Assembly (NCBI GenBank): GCA_963639385.1
Contig: CAVHVH010000001.1
Span: 1-46,113, forward strand
Direction: 5' to 3'
Source: Oscillospiraceae bacterium
GTDB lineage: Bacteria > Bacteroidota > Bacteroidia > Bacteroidales > Bacteroidaceae
DNA length: 46,113 nucleotides
The notes under the pieces were generated by a model. The model saw only the letters and a program-made list of their open reading frames with translations, had not been told where the DNA came from and did no database searches. Positions 9,575 to 25,228 of the stretch are shown here, one piece after another; within the stretch, counting starts at the first letter, position 1; every line of letters starts with the position of its first letter. A program made the translations under genes and the position numbers.

Positions 9575-11071
9575 TTACAACTTCACTTTACGCTTGGCAG
9601 CCTTACTCTCATTACCCACACGGTCGAGGGCTGTCACCACATAGGTATATGCATCGGTACCCTGATTGTAAGGCATACGATAGAAGGTATCATAAGTTAT
9701 CTTCACTATTTTTGAAGCATCGGCTATGTTCACTTTCTCGCCCTTGGCAAAACGATAAACAACATAGCGGCGGGCTACATCGCCCCATTTTTTAGCTTTC
9801 GGGGCCGACCAATAGAGCATAAACCCGTCTTCTGTCCATGCATCGCCTACCTTGGTAGGCTTTTTAGGAGCTTTATCATCAAGGAACTGCATATAGGGGG
9901 GCAGAGCCTTTGACTTCCAGTACACATTACGGAGCATTGTTCCATAACTGCCCATATCTTCGGCTGCCACCTTGGCATACCAAAGTACCGTACCGGCAAC
10001 ATTACGCAACTGTCTGTGCAGACGAAACTTGGCCGCCATTTGGTGTGTTGACGCATTAGACGGATCGGCATTCTGCACTGTATTCTCAATGCTCTCGCCT
10101 ATATAGAGTGGCCGATTGGCCATATGGTTTGCCCACCACTTAATCAATGTTTCATAGTCGGCCAATGGATGTCCTATCTGCCAATACAGCTGCGGCACAC
10201 AATAATCTACCCATCCGTTGTTTACCCACAATAGCACATCGGCATACAACTGGTCGTAGTTTTGCAGTCCGTTAGTATCGCTTCCCAATGGCGAATTTTT
10301 CTTATTACGGTAAATGCCAAACGGTGAAACGCCAAACTTTACCCACGGCTTGAGGCGATGTATATGTTCACCCATTTCTTTAACAAACAAGTTTACATTG
10401 TACCGACGCCAGTCTCCACGGTCGGCAATTCCGTTATTGTATAACGCATATTCTTTATCATCGGGTATTTGACGGCCGCCTTCGGGATAGGGATAGAAAT
10501 AATCGTCGATATGCATACCGTCGATATCATACCGACTCACAATATCATCAACCACAGAGAGAATATATTCACGGTTTTCCTTGAGCCCTGGGTTGAGCAC
10601 ATACAGCCCACCATATTCAAAGGCGCGCTCGGGATGGGTATTGAGTATATGGTTGGCTGCCAGACGTGTAGGACTTTTCATGCGGGCACGATAGGGATTT
10701 ATCCAGGCATGAAACTCCATACCACGCTTATGGCACTGCTGTATCATCCATGCCATAGGGTCCCAATAGGGCGAAGGCGCCTGCCCCTGCACTCCCGTAA
10801 GATAGCGGCTCCAGGGTTCTATCTTGCTCTCATATAGTGCATCGCACTCGCCACGAACCTGAAAGATTACGGCATTGGCACCATCTTTCTCCAACTCGTC
10901 TAACTGGTGAGTAAGCATCTGCTGTATTTCGGCTGTAGACTTACCTAAATACATACCATTTACAAACTGCATCCAAGCGGCTCTAAACTCGCGTTTTCCT
11001 CCATCGGCATACATTTTTTCCGAGGCAAACAGCCCAAGAGCCGCAATCAATATTACAAAAAATCTTTTCAT
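9575..11071 (-). CDS. Glycosyl hydrolase-like family 10 (DUF187/YddW-type) secreted protein with C-terminal Fn3-like domain
   Basis: Signal peptide MKRFFVILIAALGLFA, REFRAAW, FQVR, HAWINPYR, DGMHIDDYFYPY, PQLYW, YVVTALDRVGNES; the track's 5' extension to 11233 is repeat-derived. Confidence 0.88.
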   Translation of the reverse strand: MKRFFVILIAALGLFASEKMYADGGKREFRAAWMQFVNGMYLGKSTAEIQQMLTHQLDELEKDGANAVIFQVRGECDALYESKIEPWSRYLTGVQGQAPSPYWDPMAWMIQQCHKRGMEFHAWINPYRARMKSPTRLAANHILNTHPERAFEYGGLYVLNPGLKENREYILSVVDDIVSRYDIDGMHIDDYFYPYPEGGRQIPDDKEYALYNNGIADRGDWRRYNVNLFVKEMGEHIHRLKPWVKFGVSPFGIYRNKKNSPLGSDTNGLQNYDQLYADVLLWVNNGWVDYCVPQLYWQIGHPLADYETLIKWWANHMANRPLYIGESIENTVQNADPSNASTHQMAAKFRLHRQLRNVAGTVLWYAKVAAEDMGSYGTMLRNVYWKSKALPPYMQFLDDKAPKKPTKVGDAWTEDGFMLYWSAPKAKKWGDVARRYVVYRFAKGEKVNIADASKIVKITYDTFYRMPYNQGTDAYTYVVTALDRVGNESKAAKRKVKL

Positions 11072-11097: not shown

Positions 11098-11234
11098 GCA
11101 AAGATAATGCAAACGAGCGCAATGAAAACTTGATTTCATATTGCCGAGTGCAGCTTATCTTATGCAAAGATAATGCAAACGAGCGCAATGAAAACTTGAT
11201 TTCATATTGCCGAGTGCAGCTTATCTTATGCAAA
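11098..11234. repeat. Two exact tandem copies of a 66-bp hairpin element plus a terminal GCAAA
   Basis: Unit GCAAAGATAATGCAAACGAGCGCAATGAAAACTTGATTTCATATTGCCGAGTGCAGCTTATCTTAT at 11098-11163 and 11164-11229, then GCAAA 11230-11234. Confidence 0.95.
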
Positions 11235-11261
11235 AATACAATGATTGTAGCCTACAGCAAA
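11231..11261 (-). promoter_or_regulatory. Probable native promoter of the GHL10 gene
   Basis: Minus strand TTTG (11258-11261), 19 nt, TATTTTTG (11231-11238). Confidence 0.65.
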
Positions 11262-22926: not shown

Positions 22927-22950
22927 GGGTGGTTCTAAAAATATACCACC
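22927..22950 (+). repeat. Short copy of dispersed GGGYGGTTCTATAAA motif
   Basis: GGGTGGTTCTAAAAATATACCACC. Confidence 0.55.
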
Positions 22951-22987: not shown

Positions 22988-23920
22988 CTAAGTATTAGCT
23001 GCAATAATAGCCATTATCTGTTCTACTTTGTCTTCCATTGTATCAAGAGCATTTATCCAATGTATAACAAAGCCCCGCCGTTCCATACCTCTAAACCATG
23101 TCATCTGCCGTTTGGCAAATTGGTGTATGGCTATTTCCAAGCGAGAAAACATCTCGTCGTATGTAGTTTTACCTATAACATACTCGGTAACATACTTGTA
23201 TTCCAACCCGTAATAGATTAGGTCTTCGGGCTGAACGCCCTCTGCCAAGAGCTGCCGTATCTCGTCTACCATTCCTTCTTCCAGACGTTGTCTCAAGCGG
23301 GTGGTAATCTTTCGGCGACGTTCATCGCGGTCTATTTTCACCCCTATTATAACCGAATCTACCGGCGGTAGCGCACGGTTCTCTGCAGGATGCTCTATAT
23401 TATAGCTTTCTATCTCTATGGCACGAATGGCGCGCTGGGCAGTATCTACATCGGTATGGTTATGCATTGCCGAGTGGTTGCGAATCTTTAGGTCTGCAAG
23501 TATTTGTGTTAGTTCGTCCAGCGTTTTACCCTCCAGTTCTTCCCGCAGAGCAGGGTTCTGCGGTACTGGAGATAGAGCATAACCTTTGAGCACACTTTCT
23601 ATATAGAGTCCCGTACCTCCGCAGAGTATTGGGGCAACCCCACGAGTCACGATATCATTGTAAGCTTTATGAAAATCTTGCTGATATTGAAAAAGGTTGT
23701 ACTTAGCCCCCGGTTCGCAGATATCTATAAGATGGTAAGGGATTGTATGGCCGTCCATCCGATAATCGTCCAAGTCTTTCCCCGTACCTATTGTCATACC
23801 CCGGTACACCTGTCGCGAGTCGGCACTTATAATTTCAGCACCGATACGCACGGCCAGAGCAGTAGCCAAGCTAGTCTTACCCGATGCCGTAGGTCCCAAT
23901 ATGGTAATCATTTTCTGCAT
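22988..23920 (-). CDS. miaA: tRNA dimethylallyltransferase
   Basis: GPTASGKT, SADSRQVY, GGTGLY, RAIRAIEI, FAKRQMTWFR; start taken at MQKMITILG (23920). Confidence 0.95.
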   Translation of the reverse strand: MQKMITILGPTASGKTSLATALAVRIGAEIISADSRQVYRGMTIGTGKDLDDYRMDGHTIPYHLIDICEPGAKYNLFQYQQDFHKAYNDIVTRGVAPILCGGTGLYIESVLKGYALSPVPQNPALREELEGKTLDELTQILADLKIRNHSAMHNHTDVDTAQRAIRAIEIESYNIEHPAENRALPPVDSVIIGVKIDRDERRRKITTRLRQRLEEGMVDEIRQLLAEGVQPEDLIYYGLEYKYVTEYVIGKTTYDEMFSRLEIAIHQFAKRQMTWFRGMERRGFVIHWINALDTMEDKVEQIMAIIAANT

Positions 23921-23977: not shown

Positions 23978-24086
23978 GCAAAGTTAGTGCAAACCGAAGA
24001 GAATACAAAATAAACCTGTTTATTTTTATTCTTGAGGTGCAGCCTAACTTCATGGCGAATAGACATAAAGTGCAAACCGAAGAGAA
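23978..24086. repeat. Divergent member of the promoter-associated hairpin element family, plus a partial second unit
   Basis: GCA-AAGTTAG-TGCAAACCGA-[AGAGAATACAAAATAAAC/GTTTATTTTTATTCTT]-GAGGTGCAGC-CTAACTT (23978-24050); AGTGCAAACCGAAGAGAA repeated at 23986-24003 and 24069-24086. Confidence 0.8.
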
Positions 24087-24157
24087 AGGCCAGAAGATGT
24101 ATAAAAAACATCTACCGGCCCCTTATTAGAGAATTTCTTAAATTTCCAATTCCATTG

Positions 24158-24877
24158 TCATTCTTTCAAAGTAAGAAAGATGTGCTTTTCTACCAATTCG
24201 GTATGCATATATCCCATAGCATCTTCCACTTTTAACAATCCTCCAATTCGATAATCTGGCGTTTTACCTTCTTTATCAAATTCCCCTTGTTCTACAAAGA
24301 ACATACCTTTTTTAGGCGCAGATAAATAGCGTATATTTCCTTCGAATTTTACCTTTAGCCCAGAAAGGCTATAAGGCAGCAACTTAATATCCTTGAACAC
24401 AAGATTTCCATTCTCTGTAGTGCTTATTTTCACATCAAGCGCCACATGAGCATCATAACCATCTATTTCAGAATATACTATATACCTAACTGTCCGTGAA
24501 CCGTCTGCCTCCACAACAGTCTTAAATGGTTTCACTGGCACGGGATATCTGTATCTATCATAACAACAAGTATCGTTGGGATGCATCGCAAGTTCTTTTA
24601 AAGATTTTTCATTCAGCACAGCTTCAGTCCTCTTTACATAGAAACGAATATCATCCTTTGTAAGGTTTCGCAGCTTGAAATAATCATAATTCACAGCATA
24701 ATATTTAGAAAGCCGTGCCAAAGAATCGTATTGGGCTTCTGTAACCTTGTTTTTAAGCCATACTGGGGGCAATTCACCACGTTTAGTATGCGGAGCATAG
24801 TCTTTCACCATATTCTGCCCGAAAGCAAAACTTACTGCTAATAGCAACAAAGCAGTCATAAAAATCCTTGTTTTCAT
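24158..24877 (-). CDS. Hypothetical secreted protein (start 24877 or 24904)
   Basis: 248-aa ORF, signal-like MKTRIFMTALLLLAVSFAFG; no family recognised; AT-rich context. Confidence 0.7.
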   Translation of the reverse strand: MKTRIFMTALLLLAVSFAFGQNMVKDYAPHTKRGELPPVWLKNKVTEAQYDSLARLSKYYAVNYDYFKLRNLTKDDIRFYVKRTEAVLNEKSLKELAMHPNDTCCYDRYRYPVPVKPFKTVVEADGSRTVRYIVYSEIDGYDAHVALDVKISTTENGNLVFKDIKLLPYSLSGLKVKFEGNIRYLSAPKKGMFFVEQGEFDKEGKTPDYRIGGLLKVEDAMGYMHTELVEKHIFLTLKE

Positions 24878-25228
24878 GATGCCATAACTAACATTTTTTT
24901 TCATTGTTTTTAAAGAGATTGAAGTTAAACAACTTTGTCTAATAGATGTTGTAAATATATGGAAATTCTATTTTTAAAGAAATCTTTTTATAATAATTAA
25001 CATAAAAATCGCGCAAAAATCACATAAAAACGTGAGTAAATTAGCATAACCAACATTGTACAAAACGTTATATGCCAATATTTTTTCATTCCTTTATAAA
25101 TAAAGATTGTTCTAAAAATGACCCCGCAAAACTCGTACTTTATTGCAGGAAGGCGTTTTGCCGTCTTTCGGAATTATTTTGAGAAAAAACTAATTTCAAA
25201 ATACATCATCCTTAATGCCCCAAAAAGC

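Follow-up and report, generated by a model that had tools for sequence, protein, structure and literature searches.

Integron attC sites are single-stranded DNA (ssDNA) hairpins with a 7-bp outer stem, an unpaired spacer, a bulged inner stem, and a variable top, and they occur in arrays. MITEs such as Correia elements insert between genes, are small and non-autonomous, and can generate new promoters or modify existing ones. REP/REPIN sequences with TnpA-REP (RAYT) are short intergenic bulged hairpins with many copies, in tandem clusters, and with presumed in-trans mobility as ssDNA (PMC8266576, PMC6006769). Here, we compare these systems with a hairpin family found in a 46,113-nt stretch of Bacteroidaceae DNA (the window). 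Its units are ~65 to 90 nt long and include the one at 23980–24066 upstream of miaA and both 66-bp units at 11100–11231 (the 11098 locus). The element is real, mobile, and apparently undescribed.

The family likewise consists of short, bulged, intergenic hairpins in many copies and clusters, and it resembles E. coli REP in its AA x GC bulge and in the TTTA loops of some copies. One subfamily has GTAG...CTAC, reminiscent of the REP “double foot,” and the junction is compatible with C|A except at 16 of 137 right junctions, where another base stands. However, the GT[AG]G foot of REP is not conserved (ATAG, TTAG, ATAA, and GTAC occur). At the position of the REP G, the arm columns vary yet pair (AT 111, TA 24, and GC 17 among 157 cores). 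No RAYT gene flanks the element, and its target is a 7- to 8-nt promoter box used in fixed orientation upstream of genes, whereas that of REP is a dinucleotide. A motif search of the 2018 REP table, together with a comparison against 30 of its 68 subclass-2.6 rows, gave no match (PMC6006769).

Like the PATE and IS608 members of IS200/IS605, the element inserts precisely and in one orientation by a short motif that is also present at its own end. No true target duplication is needed, and an ssDNA circle is implied. On the sense strand, a guide-like AAG stands at the 5' foot of the hairpin, as in IS608. Unlike IS200/IS605, one hairpin serves both ends, the putative guide is a 6- to 7-nt arm instead of a tetranucleotide, and the structure signals favor the opposite strand. 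No parent IS with the element's ends was found, and no Y1 or IscB locus ends in the hairpin. The element works like a non-autonomous ssDNA hairpin of the REP/PATE type, yet it is set apart from both, because GTAG is not conserved, RAYT is not flanking, and no parent IS was found.

Unlike MITEs with terminal inverted repeats (TIRs), the element has inverted arms that are only 7 bp long, sub-terminal, and variable, and its interior covaries. Its ends are set by a motif and a cap rather than by conserved TIRs with target site duplications, and the repeated end motif is part element and part target. As for IS91/Helitron-type rolling-circle elements, the Y2 partner (PF04986) was found in 3 of 149 genomes of the host family and has no ends in common with the element. 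Comparison with Rfam, as the original prediction proposed, yielded no known family: there were no matches over the gathering threshold in the window (only chance matches at E ≤ 10) and none in six further loci covering both types of the element. Motif searches of the supplements of PMC6006769, PMC3733652, PMC8040213 (files other than 7 and 8), and PMC10690425 (files other than 1, 2, and 4) gave nothing. The family is not described in the literature searched, although it may stand unnamed in the catalogs PMC11602168 and PMC5737381.

Structure, covariation, and distribution of the element

The two loci were predicted to have a common architecture, with arms that change together and inner stems that differ in sequence but still pair, and every one of these features is present (Table 1). 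The partial second unit expected 83 bp beyond the first at miaA is also there, marked by a second TGCAAACCGA. We call the miaA layout type I: AAAG, a 7-bp arm, an internal loop, a 3-bp stem, tandem GA/GA, a bulge, a variable top hairpin, and then the arm ending in CTT, with the plus strand folding better. Identical copies of the miaA cap occur on contigs C5 and C7, and a covarying version on C81. The core pattern matches three times in the window and never in 100 shuffles. Fold z-scores are −3.3 (plus) and −3.1 (minus) for the miaA unit and −2.7 (plus) and −2.9 (minus) for the 11098 unit.

Table 1. Coordinates of the element and neighboring features in the window.
Feature	Coordinates	Strand	Remarks
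Full hairpin unit at miaA, type I	23980..24050	+	Starts AAAG; covariance-model match, 80.2 bits
Left arm AAGTTAG	23981..23987		
TGCAAACCGA	23988..23997		Followed by the inner hairpin
GAGGTGCAGC	24034..24043		
Right arm CTAACTT	24044..24050		
Cap/linker, small hairpin	24051..24066	+	16 nt; would close the far end of a circular rod
Partial second unit	24067..24086	+	−7 box broken; TGCAAACCGA from 24071
−7 box TAACTTTG	23979..23986	−	By the junction rule, final G from target and remainder from the element's left arm
−33 box TTTG inside the miaA hairpin	24006..24009	−	19-nt spacer to −7; G is the bulged base
miaA, tRNA dimethylallyltransferase	22988..23920	−	Predicted to be served by the element-built promoter; TIGR00174, 188.9 bits (cut-off 148.65)
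Terminator-like hairpin of the upstream gene	24088..24120	−	Host flank outside the element; read from sequence
Upstream gene, 248-aa ORF	24158..24904	−	Between gapA and miaA
66-bp unit 1	11100..11165	+	4-nt short cap; one stem pair deleted on both sides; 66.4 bits
66-bp unit 2	11166..11231	+	Identical tandem copy; covariance-model match
Arms of the 11098 locus			AAGATAA/TTATCTT
−7 boxes of the 11098 locus	11099..11106, 11165..11172		
Native promoter displaced upstream by the 11098 array	11231..11261	−	−7 TATTTTTG 11231–11238; −33 TTTG 11258–11261; spacer 19 nt
Glycosyl hydrolase-like 10 (GHL10) gene downstream of the 11098 array	9575..11071	−	PF02638, 200.9 bits; start 27 nt from box

The 248-aa ORF has no Pfam match and a sub-threshold NCBIfam match; in most relatives, gapA directly adjoins miaA without it. 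At 24060–24120, on the minus strand, the partial second unit gives a T-run after the terminator-like hairpin of this gene.

The hairpins are a structured repeat family with real covariation. Conservation of structure, as originally predicted, is evident from a covariance model trained on 70 diverse units. In the underlying alignment of related sequences, 95.3% of cells are paired and both-sided changes are present in 18 of 24 pairs; because only units with 5 or more of 7 arm bases paired were taken, pairing in the arms is overstated, whereas that of the inner stems is unaffected. The covariation score of 0.479 lies far above the values for shuffled (0.203) and slid (at most 0.134) alignments, and RNAalifold returns the identical fold. 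Amid these changing pairs, the unpaired features are fixed: the AA x GCA loop, a GA/GA that never varies, and a bulge that may be any base. A k-turn was considered and rejected, since no 3-nt bulge precedes the GA. Past the right arm, the linker is either 4 nt long or a small hairpin, whose stem covaries too. In circular folds, the joined ends would yield a closed rod.

The genome from which the window derives (2.27 Mb, 82.55% complete) has 35 covariance-model matches, including a run of eight on contig C129. A fixed HMM finds 48 matches, counting half copies, and none in the reversed genome. An iterated HMM found 70, but it had drifted to take in MITE-borne and half copies, and we use the counts of 48 and 35. 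Across near-complete genomes of the same family, the covariance model is positive in 101 of 149 genomes and in 23 of 27 genera, where per-genome copy counts are read as at least 31 at the upper end. It is positive in none of 149 genomes sampled phylum-wide, and a stricter pattern matches 2 of 200 genomes sampled across the order. A separate loose pattern, which has chance matches, served only to choose high-copy genomes. Named records that carry the element are mostly of the Prevotella group, with some Muribaculaceae and Paludibacteraceae. Titles that name Firmicutes or Chloroflexi hosts (L073, L075, L089, L097, L100, L108, L130, and L131) look mislabeled, because L073 coincides with a genome of this family. 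Viral contigs searched with a loose core pattern gave one paired-arm copy among 120 loci and no clear relative outside Bacteroidales, while plasmid and annotated phage collections gave one chance match and seven unannotated records.

A sister type II shares with type I the arm, the 8-nt spacing to the GA/GA pair, and the target, and differs in its internal loop. By a strict pattern, it is present in 12 of 149 family genomes, and mixed arrays of both types occur. In the type II loci (L698–L727; for example, genome G357 with 23 copies), the internal loop is GAATAA x GNRA, caps have C-GNA-G loops, and many internal junctions read AGAG, as opposed to AAAG at left ends.

A second, unrelated MITE family is also present. 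Its terminal repeats begin GGGTGGTTCTA (in the window at 22927, 31176, and 41174 on the plus strand and 46049 on the minus strand), its length is ~100 to 290 bp, and it has well over 100 ends across many contigs of this genome. Approximately ten of these MITE copies hold an old, diverged copy of the hairpin element.

Mobility and the promoter-box target

The predicted mobility is borne out by filled and empty alleles, both at phage sites and between sister species. Among phage contigs with left flanks 97.6 to 99.6% identical, the ratio of filled to empty alleles is 10/20 at site A, 7/9 at site B, and 2/1 at site C, where the two filled alleles carry different inner hairpins. One flank G at site A is absent from all filled alleles, and the empty alleles are thus not simple deletions of them. 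Sites B and C alone are compatible with either insertion or precise deletion. A fourth phage site, D, holds one to three units, and no empty allele was found for it. On the chromosome, a divergent promoter is filled in two and empty in four sister species, and a second site is filled in three of six. Insertion is therefore favored over deletion, on the basis of the site A flank G and the species pattern. Among miaA orthologs (28 readable of 29 fetched), we found one truncated copy and one right-half remnant. We consider it very likely that this is a mobile promoter-box insertion element.

In Prevotella-type phages (L001, L005–L007, and L009), the element lies just upstream of portal and Gp49-like genes, in lineage-specific combinations.

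Insertion is precise and falls within the A-run of the target, C-AAAnnTA, which is complementary to the −7 box TAnnTTTG of Bacteroidota. TAnnTTTG is named as a Bacteroidota promoter motif in PMC10309648. The bases preceding first units are T (0.74), G (0.77), and C (0.89; n = 111), and last units are followed by an AAAnnTA whose T (0.82) and A (0.86) were left free by the search pattern (n = 95). The base before the left AAA is the target's, and the base before the right AAA is the element's (non-C in 16 of 137 native junctions). After the A-run, the base is the element's on the left side and the target's on the right. These origins place the crossover within or at the start of the A-run; the exact bond lies below the resolution of the junction data. 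Some metagenome contigs, alike in the left flank and unlike on the right, may be assembly chimeras. Arm and native box agree in their nn at 74 of 126 sites (53.5 expected; 0 of 5000 permutations), although agreement is poor beyond the common GA class (11 of 29) and the sites are not phylogenetically independent.

Each unit begins with the target motif; the −7 box is rebuilt and the element's own target recreated. Tandem and mixed arrays arise because each insertion recreates its target. Among 212 arrays, 107 have a complete cap and stop exactly at a native box, 67 terminate in a further unit that is partial or degenerate, and 38 end otherwise. No ORFs or cassettes lie between the units.

Several of these observations could also be produced without any dedicated enzyme, if host recombination (ssDNA annealing at the 8- to 10-nt common motif, gene conversion, and slippage) moved the units and palindrome correction generated the compensatory changes. 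The match of target and arm is above chance, one site has two different inner hairpins, the 67 arrays with partial or degenerate ends are what integration into older remnants would leave, and no enzyme family follows the distribution of the element. However, palindrome correction would erase the GA/GA, the AA x GCA loop, and the single free bulge that are kept amid changing pairs, and the 11098 insertion and its target have only GCAAA in common. Type II, moreover, keeps the arm, the spacing, and the GA/GA despite its other loop, which suggests a protein that reads structure. We therefore regard host recombination alone as quite improbable.

The element as a putative source of promoters

Bacteroidota promoters have a −33 TTTG box at a spacing of 19 to 21 nt. 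Both elements in the window lie upstream of minus-strand genes, as originally predicted, and each has a −7 box that could be located. At the 11098 locus, the native promoter is intact behind the array. Across the family, a −33 box stands at 19 to 21 nt in 54 of 163 full units, with 44 at exactly 19. The idea that the element carries or targets promoters thus holds in both senses: it inserts at a −7 box, rebuilds a −7 box, and in a third of units brings a −33 box. The promoter and orientation bias that the prediction called for is likewise clear. The neighboring gene on the box side is directed away from the element in 73 of 90 loci (median distance, 50 nt), compared with 48 of 83 on the other side. 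Of the 586 upstream −7 boxes in this genome, 32 run on into the element signature, against 2.8 expected, and a −33 box is present at 27 of these 32 but at only 89 of the 553 others. Within ORFs, we find 7 of 57 element signatures, compared with 1848 of 3079 bare boxes.

Many of the promoter-associated signatures are left halves only. These halves are inferred to be remnants retained for their promoter, and the promoters themselves are predictions from sequence. By the same reading, ~5% of this genome's −7 promoters appear to be element-derived. One half copy (contig C190, 2956–3036) overlaps the 5' end of a xerD-like ORF and makes a promoter-like box directed at the divergent gene.

Folded strand and possible routes of movement

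The plus strand of the element is antisense to the mRNA. With DNA parameters, it folds better than the minus strand in 123 of 158 cores, and worse in 18; with RNA parameters, the numbers are 133 and 17. G.T pairs outnumber A.C pairs on this strand in both outer stems (35 versus 11, where 13 of the 35 come from one column and probably one subfamily) and inner stems (31 versus 17). C-GNA-G is found on the plus strand 11 times versus once on the minus strand in 58 long caps, and 12 times versus once in 236 tops. As actual cap loops, it occurs in 15 of 93 on the plus strand and in none on the minus strand, with all four N present. Such d(GNA) triloops are a stable DNA motif, according to PMC3201870 and PMC13037366. 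There is one contrary sign: the short cap is T-GNA-T on the minus strand, with a free middle base. A 66-bp duplex circle is physically unlikely. With folding on the strand complementary to the mRNA and C-GNA-G loops of DNA type, the structure signals point to an ssDNA rod rather than a regulatory RNA, and we consider it probable that the element travels as such a rod.

A repeated cis-regulatory RNA leader, akin to a riboswitch or attenuator and kept for its function in the mRNA, was the other possibility raised originally. The minus strand folds too, and where the native promoter survives, its transcript would begin with the copy inserted at the native box. Nevertheless, the minus strand folds less well than the plus strand, and the genes downstream are not related to one another. 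Most miaA orthologs lack the element, and its presence is polymorphic among near-identical contigs. Half copies and the miaA copy, moreover, constitute the promoter themselves and lie upstream of the start site. A leader function is hence extremely unlikely, and this part of the prediction was not supported.

Nor was the proposed RAYT/HUH partner confirmed: none was found in this genome, none flanks the element, and Y1 is missing from half of the high-copy genomes. Y1_Tnp was absent from this genome by profile search and tblastn (82.55% of the genome being represented). It was also missing from 68 of the 101 family genomes that carry the element and from 10 of the 20 in which at least 20 copies are present. 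The element does co-occur with Y1 (33 of 39 Y1-positive genomes versus 68 of 110 others, P = 0.009), an association confounded by lineage. Within a subset of Y1 matches, 1 of 63 loci had a copy within 1.5 kb, and this was degenerate and 1.4 kb away. IscB was found in 2 of 149 genomes, with only a degenerate inner fragment ~360 nt from one iscB, and IS110 in 2 of 5 high-copy genomes but not in this genome. Pfam searches of 64 chosen neighbors of 96 loci (22 rerun with looser settings) returned ordinary genes of hosts and phages, without any mobility enzyme that recurred, as did clustering of 445 neighboring ORFs, where the downstream genes were unrelated. We found no autonomous form (left half, gene, right half) in this genome or in the further loci inspected. 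Draft assemblies lose mobile genes, and these absences are thus not proof.

Three side observations concern mobility genes. The fragment near iscB, at L548 (3134–3177), is a lone inner hairpin of the family with other outer sequence. ORFs of ~340 to 350 aa at L341 (964–1980) and L343 (1231–2289) have a weak N-terminal Y1_Tnp match and a long C-terminal domain, which by eye we take to be DprA-like; weak matches of this kind recur in many family genomes, and the L341 and L343 ORFs have no flanking element. In genome G446 (L345, L347, L348, and L352), at least three copies of an element with a 386-aa IS110 transposase adjoin another, GC-rich hairpin repeat, suggesting that this IS110 may target that repeat.

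Tyrosine recombinases or integrases were found in all 11 genomes checked, and an enzyme of the IntDOT/CTnDOT or integron type could act on either the folded strand or an extruded cruciform. The element resembles attC in its stem layout (7-bp outer stem, internal loop, bulged stem, and variable top), in having one strand that folds better, and in forming arrays. It differs in that it has no GTT/AAC core, no cassettes between units, and no IntI, is dispersed at promoters, and has its crossover at the outer end of the arm (sites A and C) instead of at the border of arm and loop. The CTnDOT target GTANNTTT-GC and the TTT|G cut match the element's motif and crossover window: IntDOT core sites contain GTANNTTT (PMC5812530) and the first cut falls between T and G of TTTGC (PMC2817482). 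The element carries a CTnDOT-like core at its own end, and cutting of the plus strand 5' of AAAG would satisfy a homology rule. IntDOT, however, requires a 7-bp overlap and GC identity beside the cut, as stated in PMC2817482, whereas the element has no such overlap or identity rule: its spacer (the cap) ranges from 4 to ~20 nt and is mostly 4, and the G is missing at 16 of 137 native junctions. Also unlike CTnDOT, there is no integrase and there are no arm-type sites, and the element is only 65 to 90 nt long with a covarying single-stranded structure. Just 1 of 50 integrase loci has a copy, placed in the gene's promoter like other copies. Movement by a tyrosine recombinase is, on balance, unlikely, though it is the strongest competitor of the reading favored below. 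Mimicry of XerC/D dif sites, suggested by the resemblance of ATAA-TGCAAA to the consensus, was rejected, since TAG ends most of the arms and the crossover is at a different position.

The promoter would transcribe only one strand, the one complementary to the folded strand. This would also suit a retro-type route, in which sense RNA is transcribed from a native promoter, a reverse transcriptase (RT) copies it into plus-strand cDNA, and priming at the target sets the left end while truncating the right. Left ends are indeed fixed, and in this genome left halves and partial last units are common, while isolated right halves are rare. However, the distribution of RT is not correlated with that of the element (56 of 80 versus 45 of 69 genomes, P = 0.6): RT is present in 11 of 20 high-copy genomes, is absent from this genome, and 0 of 30 RT loci carry a copy. 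The 107 arrays that end at a native box with a complete cap do so at or before the expected start site, and the truncations are more simply accounted for by selection that keeps the promoter half. We judge this route very unlikely.

The reading that we favor is a non-autonomous element of ~65 to 90 nt that homes to the Bacteroidota −7 box by HUH-type chemistry; taken as a whole chain, it is plausible, though we hold it at somewhat less than even confidence. Plus-strand ssDNA would fold into a long imperfect hairpin, and on joining of the ends, the other end of the rod would be closed by the short loop or small second hairpin of the cap. With moderate confidence, we propose that the right arm acts as a guide, pairing with its own left arm or with the identical motif in a target, and, at a similar level, that a single strand-transfer step exchanges the two AAAG ends. 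More weakly, an HUH-type ssDNA transposase or initiator might act in trans without residing in the majority of host genomes. If the distal part is later lost, promoter-only halves would remain, and some host promoters would thereby be element-derived.

Known Y1 enzymes read sequence 5' of the cut. On the folded plus strand, the conserved motif lies 3' of the cut, while on the minus strand it lies 5' of the cut, although the structure signals are on the plus strand. Either the minus strand would be the active one, then, or the enzyme would read its substrate differently. Bulged ssDNA hairpins, guide pairing, and C|A cleavage all have precedent, and the minus-strand geometry, with a guide at the 5' foot and cut sites on both sides, fits IS608/REP (PMC8266576).

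A bolder reading, which we consider fairly unlikely, is that the element is a gene-less, covalently closed ssDNA rod of 65 to 90 nt, a new minimal class of DNA replicon that is guided by its arm to the −7 box and installs a standard −33/−7 promoter. Its enzyme would belong to none of the known families (Y1, Y2, IS110, RT, and integron) and could be a host protein. If true, the element would have supplied ~5% of this genome's −7 promoters and be a lineage-wide engine of promoter turnover, and its arm a natural, reprogrammable 6- to 8-nt DNA guide.

This family offers a set of recent, precise, and polymorphic insertions, at a defined target, on which the in vivo spread of REP-like hairpins could be studied. 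Should the arm prove to be a guide, its enzyme would be a candidate tool for DNA-guided insertion of ssDNA. Many human and ruminant guts are dominated by bacteria of the Prevotella group, whose promoters are little understood. The element often supplies the −33 box that most native promoters here lack, and it may thus provide a direct route to promoter replacement and to strain-level differences in expression.
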